Source: Candidatus Moraniibacteriota bacterium (GTDB taxonomy: Bacteria; Patescibacteriota; Minisyncoccia; Moranbacterales; GCA-2747515). From it: a DNA stretch of 64,000 bases. This document shows positions 11,243-20,512 of this stretch, piece after piece. Below the pieces are notes generated by a model. It was not told the origin of the DNA. It ran no database searches and saw only the letters and a list, made by a program, of their open reading frames with translations. Every line of letters starts with the position of its first letter. Within the stretch, counting starts at the first letter, position 1. The stretch covers positions 4,392 through 68,391 of the forward strand of contig PDPP01000017.1 in assembly GCA_002747515.1 (NCBI GenBank). The letters run 5' to 3'. Position numbers and translations under genes: made by a program.

Positions 11243-11379
11243 TTCATATTATTTTTACAAAGATAGGAATATAAAGAGTGAAGAATTTTATATTGTCATT
11301 CCAGCGCAAGTGGGAATTTAGTAAATATAAAATAAAAAATATTTTAAACAATATTGCAGAAGCAAGTTATAAAACATTT

Positions 11380-12954
11380 ATGAGAATTCTTTGGTTTACA
11401 TGGAAAGATAAGACGCATCCACTTGCAGGTGGTGCAGAGGTTGTCGCGAGTGAGCTAGGCAAACGTCTTGTATCTGATGGTCATGAGGTTGTTTTTATTG
11501 TTGGTGGATATAAAAAAAATAAAAAAGCTAGATCAAAAGAAATAATTGATGGTTACACAGTGATCCGTGTCGGTGGACGTTGGAGTGTGTATTGGCAAGC
11601 ATATAGATATTACAAAAAACATCTCAGAGGTTGGGCAGATGTTGTGATTGATGAGATGAATACGATGCCATTTTTCACAAAATATTACATAACAAAAAAT
11701 AAAAACACTCCTACTTGTCATTCTCGTGAAAGAAGAAATCCAAAAGATAAAAAAGATACACCGTGTCATTCTCGTAAAAGCAGAAATCCAGAATATGAAG
11801 AAAACACCTTTTGTCATTCTCGTAAAAGCAGAAATTCAGAACATGAAGAAGCTACCTCTTGTCATTCCCGCGCAGGCGGGAATCCAGAGAATAAAGATGT
11901 CGTTAAAAATCAAAAAAAATCCTTTTGTCACAATCACGAAGCAGAAAATTCACAAAATAAAAATCCACGCCAGTTTCTATTTGTTCACCAACTTTGTAGA
12001 GAGATTTGGTTTTATCAGATGTTTTTTCCACTCAATATTATCGGTTATGTGTTAGAATTTTTTTATCTGCGTTTACTCAATGATCAAGAAGTGATTACCG
12101 TGTCAGAGAGTACAAAAAAAGACCTCATGCGATATGGATTTAAAAAAGATCGTATTCACATTATTTCCGAAGGGATTCAATGTGAACCACTTGCACAATT
12201 ACCTGCAATACATCATGCAAAATATGACACGCCGACTATTCTCTCACTTGGTGCAGTGCGTGCGATGAAGCGTGCAGATCATATTGTCACAGCATTTAAC
12301 ATCCTCAAGTCCACCTCCTCCCACTCTCACAAAAACCTTTCTCATCTCCACGACAACTCTTGTCATTCCCGCGCAGGCGAGAATCCAGAATATGAAGAAG
12401 CTACCTCTTGTCATTCCCGCGCAGGCGGGAATCCAGGGAATAAAGATGTCGTTAAAAATCAACAAAAAACCTGTCAATCTATTCACAAAAATAACAATCT
12501 AAAATATAAACAACAAATCAAAAATGCAAAACTCATCATCGCAGGAGACATACATGATCCATATGCACAAAAAGTACTGCATAATGTCGCAAAATCTCCG
12601 TACAAAAACGATATCACTGTCCTCGGGCGAGTCTCTACAGAAAAAAAATGGGAACTCATGCAAAAAAGCCACCTCATCGCAGTTACCAGTATCAAAGAAG
12701 GATGGGGACTCATCGTCACAGAAGCAGCGAGTCAGGGCACACCGGCAGTAGTTTATGATGTAGATGGACTCAGAGATGCAGTGGAGTGGGGTGATGCAGG
12801 ATACATGACAAAAGACAACACGCCAAAGGCACTGGCAAATGAAATGATACAAGCATTGCAAGATGAAGATAAATATGAGAGAATACGCCAATATGCATGG
12901 CACAAATCACAAAAACTTACTTTTGAAAAAAGCTACAAAGACTTTTTTCTGTGA
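11380..12954 (+). CDS. GT4 glycosyltransferase carrying two in-frame tandem arrays of a degenerate palindromic repeat (possible pseudogene or repeat-tolerant enzyme)
   Basis: The N-terminus MRILWFTWKDKTHPLAGGAEVV and the C-terminus GWGLIVTEAASQGTPAVVYDVDGLRDAVE match a GT-B/GT4 fold. The ORF is open from GTG 11278, but 11278-11379 is itself a degenerate repeat copy, so ATG 11380 is preferred. The interior encodes repeated CHSR(K/A)(S/G)(R/G)NPE peptides derived from the repeat DNA. Confidence 0.55.
   Translation: MRILWFTWKDKTHPLAGGAEVVASELGKRLVSDGHEVVFIVGGYKKNKKARSKEIIDGYTVIRVGGRWSVYWQAYRYYKKHLRGWADVVIDEMNTMPFFTKYYITKNKNTPTCHSRERRNPKDKKDTPCHSRKSRNPEYEENTFCHSRKSRNSEHEEATSCHSRAGGNPENKDVVKNQKKSFCHNHEAENSQNKNPRQFLFVHQLCREIWFYQMFFPLNIIGYVLEFFYLRLLNDQEVITVSESTKKDLMRYGFKKDRIHIISEGIQCEPLAQLPAIHHAKYDTPTILSLGAVRAMKRADHIVTAFNILKSTSSHSHKNLSHLHDNSCHSRAGENPEYEEATSCHSRAGGNPGNKDVVKNQQKTCQSIHKNNNLKYKQQIKNAKLIIAGDIHDPYAQKVLHNVAKSPYKNDITVLGRVSTEKKWELMQKSHLIAVTSIKEGWGLIVTEAASQGTPAVVYDVDGLRDAVEWGDAGYMTKDNTPKALANEMIQALQDEDKYERIRQYAWHKSQKLTFEKSYKDFFL
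11716..11887 (+). repeat. Four tandem 48-nt units (28-nt palindromic core TGTCATTC(C/T)CG...GAAATCCAG plus a 20-nt linker) inserted in-frame in the GT4 gene
   Basis: Cores start at 11716, 11764, 11812 and 11860, an exact 48-nt (16-codon) period. The first three are A/T-mutated variants and the fourth is near-consensus (tgtcattcccgcgcaggcgggaatccag). Confidence 0.8.
12361..12436 (+). repeat. Second in-frame insertion in the same GT4 gene: two 48-nt-spaced copies of the palindromic core
   Basis: The cores are tgtcattcccgcgcaggcgagaatccag (12361) and tgtcattcccgcgcaggcgggaatccag (12409). Low-complexity flanks on either side. Confidence 0.8.
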
Positions 12955-12987: not shown

Positions 12988-13797
12988 ATGAAAGAACCAC
13001 TAGTGTCAGTTGTTGTGCCAACATATAATTCAGAAAAGTTTTTGAAATTGTGTTTAGACTCAGTGCAGAATCAGACTTATAAAAATATTGAATTAATTGT
13101 GGTAGATAATAATTCAACAGATGGAACAAAAGAAATTGCAAAAAAATATACCAGTAAAGTTTTTAATAAAGGTCCTGAAAGGAGTGCTCAAGTAAATTTT
13201 GGTGTAAAACATGCAAATGGCGTGTATGTATATAAAATTGATTCTGATTTTGTTCTAGAAAAGAATGTCGTTCAACAATGTGTAGATGAAATTTCTAATA
13301 ATTTTGATGCAATTGTTGTTCACAATTCTCCAGATATTAGAGTGAGTTGGATAGCAAAAATTAGAAAATTTGAAGTTGATATGTATAAATATGATATTAC
13401 ACATTCATCGGCACGATTTGTTAAAAAAAGTGTATATCAAAAAATTGGGGGATTTAATAGTGCAATCACTGCAGGCGAGGATTATGATTTTCAAAATAAA
13501 TTAAATAGAAGTGGTTATAGGACTGGATTCATAGAAGCTGAAGCTTTACATTTGGGAGAGCCTACAAATTTTTTTGCACATATGAAAAAATATTATGACT
13601 ATGGAAAAGATTTTGTAAATTATAAATCTGAAAACGAAACAGAATCAAAAGAGCAATTAGGATTTATTAGAAAGGTGTATGTAAAAAATTGGAAAAAATT
13701 TTTATGTCATCCAATACTTTCTGCTGGTTTCATTTTTTATAATATTTGTAAATTTGGATGTGGAGGGGTCGGTTTATTGATAAATAGCATGAAGTAA
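12988..13797 (+). CDS. GT2 glycosyltransferase (soluble, single-domain)
   Basis: VSVVVPTYNSEKFLKLCLDSVQNQTYKNIELIVVDNNSTDGT matches the typical GT2 N-terminal signature with the DxD region. Confidence 0.6.
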   Translation: MKEPLVSVVVPTYNSEKFLKLCLDSVQNQTYKNIELIVVDNNSTDGTKEIAKKYTSKVFNKGPERSAQVNFGVKHANGVYVYKIDSDFVLEKNVVQQCVDEISNNFDAIVVHNSPDIRVSWIAKIRKFEVDMYKYDITHSSARFVKKSVYQKIGGFNSAITAGEDYDFQNKLNRSGYRTGFIEAEALHLGEPTNFFAHMKKYYDYGKDFVNYKSENETESKEQLGFIRKVYVKNWKKFLCHPILSAGFIFYNICKFGCGGVGLLINSMK

Positions 13798-13831
13798 AGT
13801 TAAATAAGTTTTAAATGATAATTTATTTACT

Positions 13832-15016
13832 TTGATTAAAAATAGTATGTGTATATATTTTTTTGAATTACCAAAAACAGGACATAATATAAGTGGTGGC
13901 GAAAATTGTTTACTTGAAAATATTAAATATTTTAGTAAAAAGTATCGATGTATAATTATTACAACTGATTTGGCAGAAAAAATTTTCAAAGAAAGGCTGG
14001 GTGGTAATTTAAAAAATGTAGAATATAGAACAATTTCAACGAGTGATAAGGAGGGAAATTTAAATATATTTTTTTCTTATGTTTTAAGAACTGTAAAAGC
14101 AATTTTTTTGGTTAGTAGAATTAAATTAAATAATCAAGATGTTTTAATATGCAATTCAGATTTTTTTCCAAATTCTATTCCTTTCTTTATTTTTGCAACA
14201 ACGAAAAAAAGTGTAAAAATTTTTTATTGGTGGAGAGTTGTGGCTCCCTCTATTTTTAAGGGATTTGAGGGACAATATACGGGTCGATATCAAATTCCGA
14301 AAATTAATGTTGTTCATTATAAAATAAATCAATTATTATACATATTATTAACTAAAAAAAAGGGTATAATAATAACTCATGCCCCAGCATATTATGATTA
14401 TCTTTCAAACAAGTTCGCAAAAAATCAAATCAGGGTCATTAAACCCTATGGAGGCCATGAAAAAGTCGTTTTTAATTGTAAAGAAAAGATAATTGATATT
14501 ATATGGATGGCTAGATTTCAAAAATTGAAAGGTCTTGATAATTTTATAAATATTGTAAAAAAAATTCAAAAAGATATCCCCAATATAAAAGTGGTTATTT
14601 TGGGAAGTGGGAATAAAAAGGAGATAAATAAACTCAACGAAGCAATATTAAAAAATGGTCTTAGTAAAAATATTAAATGCAAAGGATTTGTTTTTGGACA
14701 ACAAAAGAGTGATTTTCTTTCGCAGTCGAAAATTTTTGCGATGACAAGTTATTTTGAAAGTTACGGACAGGTTATTGTGGAATCTATGGCACACGGCCTT
14801 CCTATTGTTTCATATGACCTTCCTACGTTTACAGTTTTTTCTCGTGGAATCATAAAAGTTCCAATTCTTGATGATGATAGTTTTTCTAAAGAAATCATAA
14901 AATTGTTATCAGATAAAGAAAAATTGCAAAAGTTTTCGGAAGACGCAAAAGAATTCTCATCGGGATTTTCTTGGGATAAAACAAATTCTGCAATCGAATC
15001 AATCATTAATTGTTAA
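13832..15016 (+). CDS. GT4 glycosyltransferase
   Basis: The C-terminal GT4 motif is FAMTSYFESYGQVIVESMAHGLPIVSYD, with the EX7E-like region. The gene is very AT-rich. Confidence 0.55.
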   Translation: MIKNSMCIYFFELPKTGHNISGGENCLLENIKYFSKKYRCIIITTDLAEKIFKERLGGNLKNVEYRTISTSDKEGNLNIFFSYVLRTVKAIFLVSRIKLNNQDVLICNSDFFPNSIPFFIFATTKKSVKIFYWWRVVAPSIFKGFEGQYTGRYQIPKINVVHYKINQLLYILLTKKKGIIITHAPAYYDYLSNKFAKNQIRVIKPYGGHEKVVFNCKEKIIDIIWMARFQKLKGLDNFINIVKKIQKDIPNIKVVILGSGNKKEINKLNEAILKNGLSKNIKCKGFVFGQQKSDFLSQSKIFAMTSYFESYGQVIVESMAHGLPIVSYDLPTFTVFSRGIIKVPILDDDSFSKEIIKLLSDKEKLQKFSEDAKEFSSGFSWDKTNSAIESIINC

Positions 15017-18000
15017 TAATTATGAAATTACAAGATAAGGATAATATCATAAATATAATTGTGATAATATTTTTTTTGTTTTTACCATACTTTATATTCA
15101 AAGGAAATTTTCATATTGGTGGTGATGATTCACATCTATTTTATATATATCCGCAATTATGGATTGAAAATGTTTCAAATTCTACATGGACAAGTTATTC
15201 ATCTTTAGGATTATTTAGCAATCAATATTATTATAATCCATTGTTATATATTTTGTCATTTTTACACATTTTTTTTATTTCGAGTTATGTAATTCAAAAC
15301 ATTATATTCTCAACAATTTTTATTGGTGGTTTTGTATTTTTGAAGAATTTTTTATATGTAATTATTCCGCAGTCTAGAAGATATATTGTCGAAATCAATC
15401 TCAGTGGTTTTGTCTATATTTTTTCTCCAATTTTATTGATAACCCCTCTTAGAGCGTATTTGGCAAATATTTGGTTAATTCCTTTAATTCCATTACTTGC
15501 TTTTTTGTTTTCTAAATATTATAAAACAAATCATTTCAAGTATAACACTCTAATTGGAATTGTATCTTTCTTTTTTGCACTAGCTTTTAATGCTGTTCCG
15601 TGGCTTTTGGGAGTTATTCTGCCACTTATTTCTGGGGTTTTAATTGGGGTGTTTTTTTTGAAGAAGGCAAGAGCATATAATCTTCTTAAAAAATTTTTTT
15701 TATCTGGGTTGTTAATTGGTTTAACTCAATTATTTTGGCTATTCCCCTTTTTTATGTCAGTTATGTCGTCACATAATTCTGTGGGATCAAAAGTTTTTAA
15801 TGATGAATTTGAAAATACATTTATAAAGGAAGTCTTAGCAACTTCTGCTAACACAACGATTTTAGATCCTTTAAGGAATTTTTTCCATATCGGACTACAG
15901 GAAAATTTTAAGTGGTCAACTTTACAATTATATTCTAATTGGTATTTAAAAATTGATTTTCTTAATTATATTTTTCCAATTATAATATTTTTGGGAATTA
16001 TATTATCTTACAAGAATTTGAAAAGGGTTTATCTAGTTTTTTTATTTCCATTTATCGTGTCCTTGTTTTTATTTACGGTTAAGATTGGTTTATTGAAAGA
16101 CTTCTTTATGATATTGGGCAATATTCCTGGATTTGTTATGTTTAGAAATTTTTATGATAAATTTTCTATAGGCTATGTTTTTTTCTTTTCAATAATTATT
16201 TGTTTTTCATTAATTTTTTTAAAAAACAGTTTAAATAGATCAGGTATCTATAAATTAATATTAATCGTGATAGCATTTGTTGTTTTGTATGATTCAAAAC
16301 CGTTAATTTTTGGGGATGTTTTTAATGATAATATAAGAGGAACAAATTCTGTTGGTCAAAATATTATAATTCCGCAAGAATATTTAAATTTTATGGATCA
16401 TGTATCTAAAGTTGTTCCACATTCATCGAATATTTTTGATGTTCCATTTGGTAATTCTGCGTTTACTATTATTGTTGGAGAATCTGGCCATTCTGTTTTT
16501 TCTGGTAAGTCTCCTGTAAAGTTATTTAGTGGCATTAATGATTTTAGCGGAAAGCTTTCATTTGATAAAGAAACTTCTAAAATTATTTATAAATTTATCA
16601 GAGAAAGAAAATATTATAAACTAAGAAATCTATTAAGTATTTATAATATTAATTATGTTTTTGAAACAAATAATATTCCTTTTGAAATTTTAAATTCGCA
16701 TCTCTATTCTGAAAAAATTTTAAAAAAGCAAGATGAAATTTTTAGGGATAATATGTATGGTGATTTAATTTTTTCTAGTATAAATAAAAATTATAATTTA
16801 TATTCTTTAAAGAAAAATGAATCAGGAAATTCTCAAATAATAAATTTTCCCAAAAATATATATTTGTATGAAGATGTCATTGATCAGAGAATTAGAGAGT
16901 CTTTAATGAGTTTGGTGAACTCAGAAAATGTTTTTGTTAGAGAGAAATTACATGGCATTAATAAATTAAAAAAAATTGAAAAATTAACAGAGGACTCCGA
17001 GTATGAAGATCATAAGCGTTCATCTATTTTGATTGTAGATGAATTGAATGTTGGGCTGTTGTCTTTTGAAGAAAGTGATAAAAATATGTATATATCAAAT
17101 GTATATGATTATATTTTTGATAAAAAAAATTCGAAAGTATTTCAAGAAAATATTTCTTCAGATTCTTTAATTGAAATTAATCAAAAGATTTATAATATAA
17201 AAGACGTTGATTATATTCCGATAGATACCGAATCTTCAAAAATTAAACTGTATACAAAATCTTTAGACAATATACTCGAATCAAGTTTTGATATTTATAA
17301 AAATTGGAAAAAAGGTGATTGTAATGCGCATGATGGCAATCGCGAAGTTTTTTTTAACTTTGACGTTGAAAAAAACAGTCTTGTTTTAAAATCTCAAAAT
17401 AATCATAATGCATGTACTTATTCTAATATTGATATTGAAAAAAATGAAATTTATTCTTTAGTTTTTGATTATGAAACTAATAATGATAGAATTACTGTTT
17501 TTATTGAGTTATCAGATGGTGAATTTATTAAACGTGAAGAAAAAGTTAATCAAAAAGGACAATTTAATCTAACATTTAAAAATCCTATTGATGATGATAT
17601 AAAATTATATTTATATTCAGGAGAATCAAGTGATAAGAGTATCACTGAGTATTTTAATGTTAGGTTATTCAAATATAATTTTTTAAAAGAATTTGATGAT
17701 ACAGATATTGCAATTGATAATTTACATTCTCGTTATATTCCAGGTAATTCTCTGAGTAAAAGAATGAAAATTATATCTCCAGTTGTAAATAATGTTGATG
17801 AGTTTTCAAATTCATTTGAAAACTGGAAAAAGGGTGATTGTGGTGCAATTAATTTGGAAAAAAAAGTTTTTTTTAACAATATTTCAAATAATGAAATAGA
17901 ACTAAAATCTAGTGATGGGCATAATGCTTGTATGCATAAGTCAATTTCAATTGATAAGAATTATAAATATGATTTATCTTTTCAATACATGAATAAAGAT

Positions 18001-18762
18001 TTGGATTATATTGATATTTATATTGATTATGGAAAAAATAACAATCCACAAAAAATAAGAAAGTCTGTACAAATTGGTCAGTGGGAAGATTTGTCTTTTG
18101 AAATATATCCGCCTCGTGATGCAGAAAAAATGACTATATATTTTTATTCAGGAAAGTCACAAAATTCTAATTACACACGTAGTGTTTATAAAAATATTAA
18201 GTTATCCTATAGTCTAAGGGGTTATTACAATAATCTGTTGGTTGAAAATGATGGGGATATCTCAGAGATAAAACCTGAAGTGTCTTTCAAAAAAGAAGCA
18301 AATTATCAATATAGGGTTTTTATTTCTTCAATTACTCGTCCTGAATTATTGAATTTTGTGGATTCTTATCATCCAAAATGGAATATTTTTGCCATTGGAA
18401 CAGATGGAAAAAAAGTGGGAATTAATGCTCAGCATGTAGAAGTCAATCGTTATTCAAATGGATGGGTAATAAACCCAAAAGAGATATGTGAAAACAATAA
18501 AAATTTTTGCGTTAAAAATGAAGATGGTAGCTATGACATGGAAATGACGATAGAATTCGTTCCACAAAGGTGGTTCTATTTAGGGTTGTTTATAAGTGGA
18601 ATAACGTTTATGAGCTTGATCGGATTTTTGGGATATGATTTTGTGAGGCGTCGCAGAGTGAAAAGGTATGGTTTGCAGCGTGGTGATGTGGGTGGAGAGA
18701 AGCGTTTTGGCGGTTCTGGTTCGCGTTCGCGGAGGTGTAGTACACGTGGTGTGCGACGGTAG
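15010..18762 (+). CDS. Giant polytopic membrane protein, possibly a GT-C-like glycosyltransferase, with a large extracytoplasmic region containing an internally duplicated ~150-aa beta-sandwich/CBM-like module
   Basis: The first ~430 aa contain about 12 TM helices. Two internal repeats share NWKKGDC..(K/R)(E/K)VFFN...HNAC. A C-terminal TM helix is followed by an Arg-rich tail. The gene is AT-rich and overlaps the upstream gene by 7 nt. Confidence 0.35.
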   Translation: MLIIMKLQDKDNIINIIVIIFFLFLPYFIFKGNFHIGGDDSHLFYIYPQLWIENVSNSTWTSYSSLGLFSNQYYYNPLLYILSFLHIFFISSYVIQNIIFSTIFIGGFVFLKNFLYVIIPQSRRYIVEINLSGFVYIFSPILLITPLRAYLANIWLIPLIPLLAFLFSKYYKTNHFKYNTLIGIVSFFFALAFNAVPWLLGVILPLISGVLIGVFFLKKARAYNLLKKFFLSGLLIGLTQLFWLFPFFMSVMSSHNSVGSKVFNDEFENTFIKEVLATSANTTILDPLRNFFHIGLQENFKWSTLQLYSNWYLKIDFLNYIFPIIIFLGIILSYKNLKRVYLVFLFPFIVSLFLFTVKIGLLKDFFMILGNIPGFVMFRNFYDKFSIGYVFFFSIIICFSLIFLKNSLNRSGIYKLILIVIAFVVLYDSKPLIFGDVFNDNIRGTNSVGQNIIIPQEYLNFMDHVSKVVPHSSNIFDVPFGNSAFTIIVGESGHSVFSGKSPVKLFSGINDFSGKLSFDKETSKIIYKFIRERKYYKLRNLLSIYNINYVFETNNIPFEILNSHLYSEKILKKQDEIFRDNMYGDLIFSSINKNYNLYSLKKNESGNSQIINFPKNIYLYEDVIDQRIRESLMSLVNSENVFVREKLHGINKLKKIEKLTEDSEYEDHKRSSILIVDELNVGLLSFEESDKNMYISNVYDYIFDKKNSKVFQENISSDSLIEINQKIYNIKDVDYIPIDTESSKIKLYTKSLDNILESSFDIYKNWKKGDCNAHDGNREVFFNFDVEKNSLVLKSQNNHNACTYSNIDIEKNEIYSLVFDYETNNDRITVFIELSDGEFIKREEKVNQKGQFNLTFKNPIDDDIKLYLYSGESSDKSITEYFNVRLFKYNFLKEFDDTDIAIDNLHSRYIPGNSLSKRMKIISPVVNNVDEFSNSFENWKKGDCGAINLEKKVFFNNISNNEIELKSSDGHNACMHKSISIDKNYKYDLSFQYMNKDLDYIDIYIDYGKNNNPQKIRKSVQIGQWEDLSFEIYPPRDAEKMTIYFYSGKSQNSNYTRSVYKNIKLSYSLRGYYNNLLVENDGDISEIKPEVSFKKEANYQYRVFISSITRPELLNFVDSYHPKWNIFAIGTDGKKVGINAQHVEVNRYSNGWVINPKEICENNKNFCVKNEDGSYDMEMTIEFVPQRWFYLGLFISGITFMSLIGFLGYDFVRRRRVKRYGLQRGDVGGEKRFGGSGSRSRRCSTRGVRR

Positions 18763-18776
18763 TGGTTGGTTTTTTT

Positions 18777-19070
18777 CTGGATTTCCGCTTTTGTGGGAAT
18801 GATGAGGGTATGGTGGGAATTGTTGGATTCCCGCCTCCGCGGGAATGACAGGGGGTATGGGAATGACAAGGGGGACGCGCGGGGGTGACATAGACTATAG
18901 TGGAAACCTCTGGATTCCCGCCTTCGCGGGAATGACACAGTGCGATATAGTGGTAGTTTCTGGATTCCCGCCTTCGCGGGAATGACAGGGGGGTATGGGA
19001 ATGACAAAAGGGGGCGCGGGAATGACAAGGGAGGTGCGGGGTGACGTATGAGATGTGGGGTTTGTAATGT
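18777..19070 (+). repeat. Repeat island A: clustered copies of the 28-nt palindrome CTGGATTCCCGCC(T/C)(T/C)CGCGGGAATGACA with GGGAATGACA(R)GGG sub-repeats
   Basis: Core copies lie at 18824, 18910 and 18960, and a degenerate copy at 18777. The island is GC-rich within an AT-rich genome and the units are 50-95 bp. Confidence 0.8.
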
Positions 19071-19098
19071 TATGTTGTTGAATATATAATGATCTTTT

Positions 19099-19674
19099 AT
19101 GGATATAATGAGAAAACAGAAAAATACGGTTGATTTGCGTGGTGGTGTGTTACGACAAGAGCAGAGGCATCGACATGGCACGCGGCGATCTTTTGATACG
19201 CAAAAGCATGCAAATGCGATATCTCATAGGAAATATATGGATGCGCAATCATATACAGTATCACAGAAGCAACAACAAGAAAGAGTGAAAAAAAATGGGC
19301 AGAATACCAAAAAATTTCAATTATTGCAAAAGAAACATTCTGTTTTATATAATAGTATTGGTGGAGTTGTGTTTTTTTGTGTGATTATAGGTCTTTTTGT
19401 TTTTACGGAGTTGACGAGTATTGATATTTTCTTTTGGACATTTTTTCTGTCGCTTTTTTATTGGCATATTGATAGTCGTGTTTCAATTGGTGGAGCTTTG
19501 GCGTGTCTTTTGGCAATTCCAGTTTTACTTATTGCAGAAAATAACTTTGGATATATCAATGGTGGTGTGTGGGCAGAAGAAGTTGCGGTGTGGGCATATT
19601 TTTTTCTCGTGATTGGTGTGGTGAAACAAATCTATGAATATATATGGGAGTCAAAAAGACTGAAGTCATCATGA
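19099..19674 (+). CDS. Hypothetical protein with a basic N-terminus and C-terminal TM helices, embedded between repeat islands
   Basis: ORF of 191 aa with a hydrophobic C-terminal half and no recognisable motif. The true start may be internal. It could also be a non-genic ORF. Confidence 0.25.
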   Translation: MDIMRKQKNTVDLRGGVLRQEQRHRHGTRRSFDTQKHANAISHRKYMDAQSYTVSQKQQQERVKKNGQNTKKFQLLQKKHSVLYNSIGGVVFFCVIIGLFVFTELTSIDIFFWTFFLSLFYWHIDSRVSIGGALACLLAIPVLLIAENNFGYINGGVWAEEVAVWAYFFLVIGVVKQIYEYIWESKRLKSS

Positions 19675-19688
19675 TGTTTTTTGTGGTT

Positions 19689-19895
19689 CTCTGGATTCCC
19701 GCCTTCGCGGGAATGACAAAGGGGAGCGCGGGAATGACAGGGGGGACGCGCGGGGGTGACATAGGCTATAGTGGAAAACTCTGGATTCCCGCCTTCGCGG
19801 GAATGACAAAGGGGAGCGTGGGAACGACAAAAGAGACAAAGATGATGTTTTTTATAATTATGTTATCCCCGCGAAGGCGGGGATCCAGGAATTTT
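19689..19895 (+). repeat. Repeat island B: two forward palindrome copies (19691, 19781) followed by a ~50-bp module containing the inverted-orientation core (ATCCCCGCGAAGGCGGGGATCCAGG, 19866-19890)
   Basis: Identical in layout to island A units (gacgcgcgggggtgacatagNctatagtggaaa). The island ends 7 nt before the GIY-YIG start codon. Confidence 0.8.
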
Positions 19896-19897
19896 TT

Positions 19898-20182
19898 ATG
19901 AAACAGTATTATGTATATATTTTAGCTAGTCAGAAAAATGGTACTTTGTATATTGGAGTGACGAGTAATTTGCAAAAAAGAGTTTTTGAACATAAAGAAA
20001 AGTTGGTTGCAGGGTTTACAGAAAAGTATAATGTAGATAAATTAGTGTATTTTGAACAAACAGGTGATGTGCAATCTGCACTTTTGAGAGAGAAGCAATT
20101 GAAAAAATGGAATAGGGATTGGAAATTGAAATTAATTGAAGAAAAAAATCCGCAATGGAATGATTTGTATGATTTTTTGTGA
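19898..20182 (+). CDS. Small GIY-YIG domain nuclease (UPF0213/YhbQ-like stand-alone GIY-YIG protein)
   Basis: YVYILASQKNGTLYIGVTSNLQKRVFEHK matches the GIY-YIG catalytic motif. The 94-aa size is typical of stand-alone GIY-YIG proteins. Confidence 0.7.
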   Translation: MKQYYVYILASQKNGTLYIGVTSNLQKRVFEHKEKLVAGFTEKYNVDKLVYFEQTGDVQSALLREKQLKKWNRDWKLKLIEEKNPQWNDLYDFL

Positions 20183-20184
20183 TT

Positions 20185-20512
20185 TTCTGGATTCCCGCAT
20201 GCGCGGGAATGACGAAGTGGACGTGGGAATGACAAGGAGTATAGTGAAAGTCTCTGGATTCCCGCATGCGCGGGAATGACAGGAAGGGTGCGGGAATGAC
20301 ATGGGAGACGTGGGAATAATATGATGTGCGTGAATGAGACGGGGTGTGTGCATGAATGACATGGATTATAGTGAAAGTCTCTGGATTCCCGCCTGCGCGG
20401 GAATGACAGGATGGGTGCGGGAATGACAGGGGAGGGTACGGGAATGACAAGGGGATGTAAGGATGATGTTTTTTATAATTGTGTCATCCCCGCGAAGGCG
20501 GGGATCCAGGGG
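20185..20512 (+). repeat. Repeat island C: three forward palindrome copies (20187, 20254, 20381; loop variant CATG/CTG) plus a terminal ~50-bp module with the inverted core (20486-20510)
   Basis: The island begins 3 nt after the GIY-YIG stop codon. Its terminal module ggatgatgttttttataattgtgtcatccccgcgaaggcggggatccagg is near-identical to 19843-19890 (upstream island B). Confidence 0.8.

Follow-up and report, generated by a model that had tools for sequence, protein, structure and literature searches.

How did copies of a short palindromic repeat come to stand, in frame and at a regular spacing, inside the gene of a conserved enzyme? This question is raised by a GT4 glycosyltransferase gene at positions 11380 to 12954 of a 64,000-nt stretch of DNA from Candidatus Moraniibacteriota bacterium (assembly GCA_002747515.1, contig PDPP01000017.1, positions 4,392 to 68,391, forward strand). 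We refer to the whole of this stretch as the window, and all positions given for the gene and its surroundings are positions in it. An earlier note on the same DNA had described a 28-nt palindrome, with decayed copies of it, repeated at two sites within the gene, and had proposed that a selfish-type palindrome had been inserted into a conserved enzyme without loss of the reading frame. Our analysis bears out that proposal: most orthologues do not have the inserts, and the core of the enzyme is intact. The reading that we favour as a whole, with a probability of about 80%, is that the known NTS/CGTC-1 family of hairpins, whose partner is an Ssn nuclease, colonised two loops of the GT4 enzyme and the spacer upstream of its gene.

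Copies of the repeat and the family to which it belongs

The 28-mer TGTCATTCCCGCGCAGGCGGGAATCCAG is present in two exact copies on the + strand of the gene, at 11860-11887 and 12409-12436. At up to 3 mismatches the window contains 12 copies of it, and 100 shuffles contain none. The features of the gene and of its two inserts are the following.

11278..11379, + strand: GTG-initiated upstream extension of the open reading frame (ORF), probably untranslated spacer between the GT2 and GT4 genes
11294..11321, + strand: degenerate NTS copy TGTCATTCCAGCGCAAGTGGGAATTTAG in the GT2-GT4 spacer, with 5 G/C-to-A/T changes
11380..12954, + strand: coding sequence of the GT4 (GT-B) glycosyltransferase, 524 aa, intact (Pfam PF13439 and PF00534)
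11692..11973, + strand: insert 1, about 90 aa, borders +/-10 nt, between PFFTKYYI and FLFVHQL
11716..11859, + strand: three 48-nt units with A/T-decayed NTS (TGTCATTCTCGTAAAAGCAGAAAT..)
11860..11887, + strand: intact NTS / CGTC-1 REP, with tag TGTC, 8-bp stem ATTCCCGC, loop GCAG and tail CCAG
11888..11973, + strand: tail GAATAAAGATGTCGTTAAAAATCAA.. and, at 11926-11973, a fifth TGTCA unit that is very degenerate
12307..12507, + strand: insert 2, with a length of 67 aa, flanked by AFNIL and the QQIKNAKLIIAG strand
12353..12476, + strand: block of about 120 nt common to 11804-11930 (unit, NTS, tail and TGTCA), from local alignment
12361..12388, + strand: NTS copy with one stem mismatch, GCGAGAAT
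12409..12436, + strand: intact NTS, same sequence as 11860-11887 and as the - strand intergenic copy at 20381-20408

Between 11714 and 11867, Tandem Repeats Finder detects a period of 48 nt. Every copy begins in codon phase 0, the four of site 1 at 11716, 11764, 11812 and 11860 and the two of site 2 at 12361 and 12409, so that the in-frame arrangement with its 48-nt period was recovered as it had been described. Each 48-nt unit is composed of the 28-nt repeat and a 20-nt spacer, which is repeated too. The units are read as CHSRERRNPK, CHSRKSRNPE, CHSRKSRNSE and CHSRAGGNPE, in this order, in insert 1 and as CHSRAGENPE and CHSRAGGNPG in insert 2, with the overall pattern CHSR(E/K/A)(R/S/G)(R/G/E)N(P/S)(K/E/G). 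The last unit at each site, which the earlier description had not included, is a barely recognisable TGTCA at 11926 and 12472.

The 558-aa frame (11278-12954) in which the repeats had been found is open throughout and matches Pfam Glyco_transf_4 and Glycos_transf_1, which in the 524-aa form span residues 17-115 and 377-506. The upstream extension was found in 0 of 21 fully aligned orthologues, most of which start at the residue that matches the Met of ATG 11380; the N-terminus of the orthologues reads MK/RILW and that of the window protein MRILW. The true start of the gene is probably ATG 11380, which gives the 524-aa protein. Because the orthologues start at this point, the degenerate copy that had been placed at the 5' end of the frame does exist, at 11294-11321, but most likely lies in the spacer and outside the protein.

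From its sequence, the repeat is a CGTC-1-type REP, alias NTS or SRM, and not a private family. Di Nocera et al. (2013, PMC3733652) define CGTC-1 REPs by an unpaired tag CGTC (variants TGTC and CCTC), an 8-bp stem starting with AT, a 4-nt loop and an unpaired tail CCA, and equate them with the dRS3 repeats of Neisseria and with RPE-6 of R. conorii. The same survey reports in-frame copies within genes, clusters that encode 43-82 aa and different REPs at about one site of orthologues; no dedicated enzyme was known for CGTC REPs as of that survey. In the window the tag is TGTC in 10 of the 12 copies and CGTC at 20187-20214, the stem arms ATTCCCGC and GCGGGAAT form 8 bp starting with AT, the 4-nt loops are GCAG, GAAG, GGAG or GCAT, and the tail is CCAG. 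The dRS3 core ATTCCC-N8-GGGAAT has 13 matches at up to 1 mismatch (0.13 expected). The 28-mer differs from the NTS consensus CGTCATTCCCGCGMAVGCGGGAATCYRG by one mismatch, and at the limit of 1 mismatch, which is the NTS authors' own criterion, there are 8 copies in the window, including those at 11860 and 12409; the copy at 12361 has 2 mismatches. The degenerate SRM pattern has 11 matches against a shuffle mean of 0.06, and the decayed units do not match it. Three of these matches are in the GT4 gene and eight are within 1.1 kb of the ORF at 19898-20182. The 28-mer is also present in intergenic arrays. The hairpin of the intact NTS has an energy of -8.9 kcal/mol as DNA (about -17.5 as RNA), while the DNA values are -3.7 for the copy at 12361-12388, -2.4 for the spacer copy at 11294-11321 and -0.6 kcal/mol for the decayed units.

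The earlier note had called the case analogous to Rickettsia palindromic elements (RPE). The parallel is right, but it understates the link, since the CGTC-1 superfamily has been equated with RPE-6 (PMC3733652) and the repeat matches the NTS target of Ssn (PMC11893778). The parallel with Rickettsia is thus probably one of homology rather than of analogy alone, to the extent that the published equation of CGTC-1 with RPE-6 holds. Two other classes were considered and rejected. A MITE (miniature inverted-repeat transposable element) has 15-30 bp terminal inverted repeats and a target-site duplication, whereas the element here is a single hairpin with an 8-bp stem and no conserved flank or duplication at the filled sites. 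The REPIN/RAYT system has the tag GTAG and an HUH Y1 transposase, whereas the tag in the window is TGTC or CGTC and the gene flanked by the repeats encodes a GIY-YIG protein.

Filled and empty loops in orthologous enzymes

We aligned the window protein with the best 119 orthologues (120 sequences in total) and counted insertions of at least 6 aa. The orthologues are mostly 364-370 aa long, and about 90% of the 119 are without both inserts, which answers the question of whether relatives lack them. Insertions are present in 13 of the 120 sequences, the window protein among them, at site 1 (after PFFAKFYV) and in 8 of the 120 at site 2 (after AFEIAK). A third site, before KY..PTILS, and a position near residue 45 have insertions in a few sequences each. 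In the window protein, site 1 is longer by 90 residues and site 2 by 67.

An AlphaFold model was computed from the 120 sequences. It has 314 residues at a confidence score (pLDDT) of at least 90, and the core is above 90; residues 113-119 and 124-187, which make up most of insert 1, and residues 323-351 in insert 2 are below 50. Insert 1 is preceded by a strand (88-93) and a helix (100-103) and followed by a strand (197-202), while insert 2 is located between a helix (299-320) and a strand (384-388). Foldseek matches the model to MshA, BshA, PimA and WaaG with a target-normalised TM of about 0.7, and the GT-B fold, the Glyco_transf_4 and Glycos_transf_1 domains and the EX7E motif that define GT4 enzymes are all present. 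According to the model, both inserts are disordered loop expansions at the surface, between secondary-structure elements, that leave the GT-B core undisturbed; this decides the choice between loop and core that had been left for a structural model. The CHSR..NPE peptides have no evident function of their own and are probably neutral.

The DNA of nine orthologous loci (including L001, L003-L006 and L087-L090) was examined at the same loops. Site 1 is empty in L006, where ..TACTACGTG is joined directly to AAAGAACCA.. and the protein reads PFFAKYYV followed by KEPHLMFF. In L001, L004 and L087 an NTS stands right after ..TTTTATGTT, in the same orientation, with an 8-nt leader TCTC..... ahead of it, and is read as VIPA..AGIQ. 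L003 has a 93-aa composite at site 1, formed by an NTS in the VIPA frame and two other TGTCAT-tagged hairpins. L005, L088, L089 and L090 have at the same junction unrelated GC-rich hairpins of the CACCCTGTTAAATCC.. and CCCCTCCTT-GCAA-GGAGGGG types. The CACCCTGTTAAATCC..GCAATTTAACAGGGT hairpin (for example, L005 10304-10351) is read as HPVK..FNRV and the CCCCTCCTT-GCAA-GGAGGGG hairpin as SPLLRKEGLGVV or SPLQGEGRGEV. At site 2, L006 has a CGTC-tagged hairpin CGTCATTGC..GCAATCCAG and L089 a 39-nt tandem repeat (SSRPAGVSPQN), and at site 3 the gene of L090 (protein P0090) has an NTS read as CHSRENGNP. Several of the insertions share the exact junction after ..TTTTAYGTT. In-gene hairpins with a CGTC or TGTC tag were found in seven genes, and in every case the tag strand is the one that codes for the protein, although the genes are few and some of these insertions may share ancestry.

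The spacer between the GT2 and GT4 genes also differs among these loci. It is 137 nt long in the window (11243-11379) and 0-5 nt in L001, L005 and L088, where the two genes abut or overlap; in L003 it has 150 nt (419-567) with an NTS-like hairpin at 481-507. The gene order flippase, GT2, GT4, GT2 is kept in L001. In a neighbour-joining tree of the core alignment, made without support values, the insert-bearing orthologues are scattered, and the nearest relative of the window protein is P0004, the protein of L003. Both genes have an NTS or NTS-like hairpin in the spacer and an insert at site 1, with different frames, and the shared positions suggest that part of the invasion may predate the divergence of the two, with later turnover.

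Arrays like that of the GT4 gene appear to be uncommon in the DNA that we searched. In about 600 kb of DNA flanking ssn genes there were no other clearly internal in-frame copies; ten hairpins fall in ORFs of at least 200 aa there, all of them within about 70 residues of the ORF end, and these are probably intergenic. A comparison of the 15 nt that precede the tag in 183 hairpins gave no conserved target motif; the tail C-C/T-A-G alone is conserved.

Origin of the inserts and the explanations that compete for them

The two inserts share the block of about 120 nt listed above, in which a 48-nt unit is followed by an intact NTS, the tail GAATAAAGATGTCGTTAAAAATCAA and one more TGTCA. Elsewhere in the window, the spacer and tail of the in-gene units are absent; an exact-match scan of metagenome contigs with the tail AATAAAGATGTCGTTAAAAATCAA gave 0 matches, and a protein search with the insert-2 peptide gave 0 candidates, although the window protein itself was not recovered by it either. 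Since the spacers are shared and the 48-nt register is exact, it is likely that a 16-codon unit was duplicated in tandem within the gene and that a block was copied between the loops, rather than that six insertions took place separately. Thus, the copies that had been counted as inserted four times and two times all exist, but separate insertions are unlikely for them, and a few insertions followed by amplification fit better.

Between the two sites, the first NTS of the block differs at 9 of 28 positions and the remainder at 4 of 83 (Fisher p=5e-4). Decayed units 2 and 3 have an identical 24-nt core, to which unit 1 is close. This core differs from the consensus at 7 positions, all of them G/C-to-A/T changes, and its hairpin is lost. 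Such sharing suggests that the decay probably arose once and then spread through the array. The inserts had been considered old and tolerated; this holds for only some of the copies. Because two copies are perfect and the block outside its first repeat differs at only 4 of 83 positions, part of the insert structure would be recent or homogenised.

The series of events that we propose is as follows. Copies of the element would have landed, in this lineage of Moraniibacteriota, both in the spacer that separates GT2 from GT4 and in two surface loops, short ones, of the GT4 enzyme, where purifying selection would have spared only those insertions that were stop-free, a multiple of three in length and in permissive loops. 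The element itself would ease this survival, because its tag strand is open in all three frames. The unit of 28-nt NTS and 20-nt spacer would then have been amplified in tandem inside the gene, in steps of 16 codons, and the block of about 120 nt would have been copied from one loop to the other, with the NTS copies probably serving to prime recombination or gene conversion. Some copies would have lost their hairpin by G/C-to-A/T changes, and duplication or conversion would have spread the decayed version in the array. The route of insertion and the copying of the block by recombination between NTS copies are steps that we infer from the arrangement of the repeats.

Several points weigh against this account. 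No mechanism of insertion has been demonstrated for NTS, here or in the literature, and what the main text of the Ssn paper shows is the cutting of single-stranded DNA rather than transposition (PMC11893778). The filled sites, judged from their sequence, have neither a target-site duplication nor a flanking target motif. The decay is concentrated in one repeat of the block, a pattern that is not simply neutral and would require conversion or selection. Because the DNA comes from a metagenome-assembled genome (MAG), the assembly could have affected the copy number of the 48-nt array and the blocks that are nearly identical. GenBank lists only the C-terminal 311 aa of the protein, and the full-length form may not be expressed. 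Finally, the tree has no support values, and the number of independent insertions is uncertain.

A different account, which we consider unlikely, is that the in-gene NTS are not fossils but are continually re-seeded or homogenised from the genomic pool of NTS, through nicking of the single-stranded coding strand by Ssn followed by repair. It is hinted at by the presence of perfect copies beside heavily decayed ones in a genome of 35% GC, by the spacer and site-1 NTS that the window and P0004 share in different frames, by the tag strand being the coding one in all seven genes and by the common junction after ..TTTTAYGTT. If this were true, the loops of the GT4 enzyme would be hot spots of recombination within a surface-glycan locus, and the filled and empty sites would be the first junction-level evidence of strand-specific insertion of NTS/CGTC REPs without target duplication.

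We give a low probability to a decaying pseudogene, or a gene split into two products, whose frame is open only as a consequence of the stop-free repeat. The GenBank protein CR972_02320, encoded on a 106-kb contig of a Candidatus Moraniibacteriota MAG, is 100% identical to the C-terminal 311 aa of the GT4 protein; its annotation begins at MFFPLNIIG, past insert 1, and the N-terminal domain (window 11380-12020) is missing from the listed product. The NTS tag strand, as read from its sequence, has indeed no stop codon in any of the three frames. However, the A/T-rich spacers, the tails and the decayed units are open as well, and across both inserts it is only the frame of the gene that is free of stops; among nucleotide shuffles of the inserts, 21 of 20000 for insert 1 and 405 of 20000 for insert 2 stay open. 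Among the orthologues, 129 alignment columns are conserved at 90% or more, and the window protein agrees with the consensus at 96.9% of them (orthologue mean 97.2%, minimum 91.5%). The residues kept in both domains include the invariant E440 and E448, which have the spacing of the EX7E motif. The core of the enzyme is as conserved as in the orthologues, and at the level of the sequence the gene is not split. A terminator role of the in-gene hairpins was ruled out, as there is no T-run behind any of them, and Rfam and tRNA scans of the window returned nothing, with no sign of an intron or of a structured-RNA family at the inserts.

Of similarly low probability is the recruitment of the Cys-His-rich CHSR..NPE repeats into a working loop (in metal binding or protein contact, for instance) that is under selection. 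TGTCAT, which encodes Cys-His, is kept in 7 of 8 units and the Cys codon in 8 of 8, and the decayed units retain Ser and Arg by the synonymous changes TCC-to-TCT and CGC-to-CGT. This conservation is confounded by duplication, given the 24-nt core common to units 2 and 3 and nearly so to unit 1; moreover, the regions are predicted to be disordered, most orthologues have no insert, and others read the element as VIPA..AGIQ or carry unrelated hairpins in its place.

It is very improbable that short reads of the intergenic NTS arrays were misplaced into the GT4 gene during assembly. A MAG with a multi-copy repeat is open to such an error, but the frame is kept in both inserts, colinear GT4 sequence is present on their flanks, the in-gene spacers and tails are absent from the intergenic arrays, and NTS are found at the same loop in independent assemblies of other samples. 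An ancestral low-complexity or linker region of the GT4 family that resembles the intergenic repeat by chance can practically be dismissed, for although some orthologues have extra residues at the same two positions, about 90% are empty there, the existing inserts differ in sequence, frame and hairpin family, and the 28 nt are identical to intergenic copies in a window with 11 SRM matches against 0.06 by chance. The two results that the earlier note had named as contrary to insertion, an ancestral linker and a split gene, are accordingly both absent from the sequence.

The ssn-like gene, the intergenic arrays and related systems

The second place of NTS in the window is about 7 kb downstream of the GT4 gene, in the arrangement NTS-ssn-NTS.

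18775..19031, - strand: mosaic intergenic array of NTS and GGGAATGACA half-sites
19689..19833, - strand: intergenic NTS array upstream of ssn
19861..19888, + strand: variant NTS TGTTATCCCCGCGAAGGCGGGGATCCAG, whose end is 9 nt ahead of the start codon of ssn
19898..20182, + strand: ssn-like gene, predicted 94-aa single-domain GIY-YIG nuclease (PF01541), presumed partner of the repeat
20185..20510, - strand: NTS array that starts a few nt past the ssn stop; its last element is a + strand variant NTS (20482-20509)

The 94-aa protein matches PF01541 over residues 3-77 (E=2.5e-17); PDB and NCBIfam searches with it gave nothing specific. The main text of Chenal et al. (2025, PMC11893778) describes Ssn proteins as GIY-YIG nucleases that are specific for sites in single-stranded DNA, recognise the hairpin of one strand and cleave a few nt upstream of it, and it describes the NTS-ssnA-NTS arrangement as well. 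From its sequence and position we presume the 94-aa protein to be the Ssn-type partner of the repeat, and we infer that it acts on the copies in the GT4 gene.

The partner relation was examined at 80 homologue loci (L007-L086) from many phyla, in which strictly defined CGTC-type hairpins were sought in flanks of 150 nt. The homologues are 61-78% identical to the 94-aa protein. A CGTC-type hairpin is present within 150 nt upstream at 48 loci, downstream at 53 and on either side at 63 of the 80, with a density of 4.67 per kb near the homologue genes and 0.08 per kb elsewhere. The hairpins change orientation across the gene: 48 + and 8 - upstream, 54 - and 9 + downstream. L020, from a Rickettsiaceae MAG, has the same hairpin beside its ssn gene, and over-extended calls of homologue genes read hairpins as CHSRVGGNPE, VIPAKAGIQ, SFPRKRES and DSRLRGND. 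The association of CGTC REPs with a GIY-YIG partner is therefore borne out in the 80 loci, but it was rejected as a new discovery, since it is already published (PMC11893778). The homologues come from groups that include Bdellovibrionales, Omnitrophota, Bacteroidota, Desulfobacterota, Rickettsiaceae, Planctomycetota, Chloroflexota and Saccharibacteria, many of them on short contigs, and this wide range suggests frequent horizontal spread of the nuclease.

Four known systems resemble the case in part. CGTC-1 REPs (PMC3733652) have the same tag, stem, loop and tail and are mostly intergenic and clustered, with in-frame copies in genes too; however, Patescibacteria are not among the five phyla of that survey, and the GT4 gene differs by its exact 48-nt tandem register and by the block copied between two loops. 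The NTS/SRM repeats with SsnA (PMC11893778) are alike in the consensus CGTCATTCCCGCGMAVGCGGGAATCYRG, matched at one mismatch, and in the 94-aa GIY-YIG gene flanked by NTS. In contrast, the main text of that paper mentions neither intragenic in-frame copies nor Patescibacteria. A role in transformation is known in Neisseria only, and the Ssn of the window is a predicted nuclease. RPE (Ogata et al. 2000, 2002; Matsutani et al. 2013, PMC3767692) are inserted without loss of frame into conserved proteins at solvent-exposed sites, and the GT4 inserts show both characteristics. The motif ATGAC is common to RPE-4, -6 and -7, and different RPE groups are found at one orthologous locus (PMC3767692). 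RPE-1 to -3, however, are elements of 100-150 bp and unrelated sequence, whereas the basic unit in the GT4 gene has 28 nt and the composite block of about 120 nt is not itself palindromic (PMC3767692 for RPE). The REP/REPIN-RAYT system also links short hairpin repeats to a single-copy nuclease or transposase gene that is flanked by them, but with the tag GTAG and an HUH Y1 transposase in place of CGTC/TGTC and GIY-YIG; no such system was seen in the window.

In-frame CGTC REPs with clusters of 43-82 aa, the presence of different elements at one site in orthologous genes and the GIY-YIG partner are thus already published. A literature search for Patescibacteria together with "palindromic element" found no paper, nor did we find a report of several hairpin families that repeatedly colonise the same loops of one enzyme family; the in-frame 48-nt array with copying between loops appears to be new to the literature. 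The case extends the NTS / CGTC-REP / RPE-6 family, with its habit of inserting into proteins, to Patescibacteria (candidate phyla radiation). It also presents an enzyme in which two or three loops have been occupied again and again, whether by NTS read in several frames or by hairpins of unrelated kinds. Together, the filled sites and their empty counterparts in orthologues form a clean set that can be used to ask how these elements move, as their mobility has never been shown. On the practical side, the public annotation truncates the GT4 protein, and ORFs that run through the arrays (SFPRRRES, VIPAKAGIQ) should be treated as artefacts by gene callers and databases.

ORFs of this kind, 85-201 aa long, pass through the NTS arrays of the window at 18576-19181 (-), 20016-20450 (-) and 19644-19901 (+). 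They translate to repeats of SFPRRRES, VIPAKAGIQ and WIPAFAGMT, are almost certainly spurious and are a source of junk entries in protein databases. The spacings in the intergenic arrays range from 46 to 127 nt, and the mosaic partners of the NTS there are unlike those in the gene. The intergenic NTS are held in an 82-nt mosaic unit (18859-18940, 19730-19811, 20203-20284 and 20330-20411), in which GGGAATGACA half-sites are followed by ..TAGACTATAGTGGAAAC.. and then by the NTS; this unit resembles the mosaic intergenic arrays described for Neisseria. The sequence GGGAATGACA, which contains the ATGAC motif, occurs 18 times in the window. A 52-nt direct repeat, 94% identical between 19838-19889 and 20459-20510, ends in each copy with a variant NTS (ATCCCCGC stem). 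The two copies are 621 nt apart and bracket ssn and the NTS array downstream of it, which looks like a duplicated or mobile cassette.

The region between the GT4 gene and the arrays (13001-18000), which contains more glycosyltransferase genes, has a GC content of 0.23-0.28, while nearly all other 1-kb windows have 0.30-0.43. A 1250-aa membrane ORF (15010-18762) ends in an Arg/Gly-rich C-terminal tail that reaches the GC-rich start of the first NTS array. In L001, an 86-aa GIY-YIG gene is located between 18461-18570 and 18858-18967, which are 91% identical copies of the 110 nt that end a 973-aa gene; the GIY-YIG gene looks inserted into the 3' end of that gene, bringing a replacement end with it. 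The same locus has a truncated GIY-YIG start after a hairpin near 19268, and there is an assembly gap within its arrays of hairpins of other kinds that have the TGTCAT tag.

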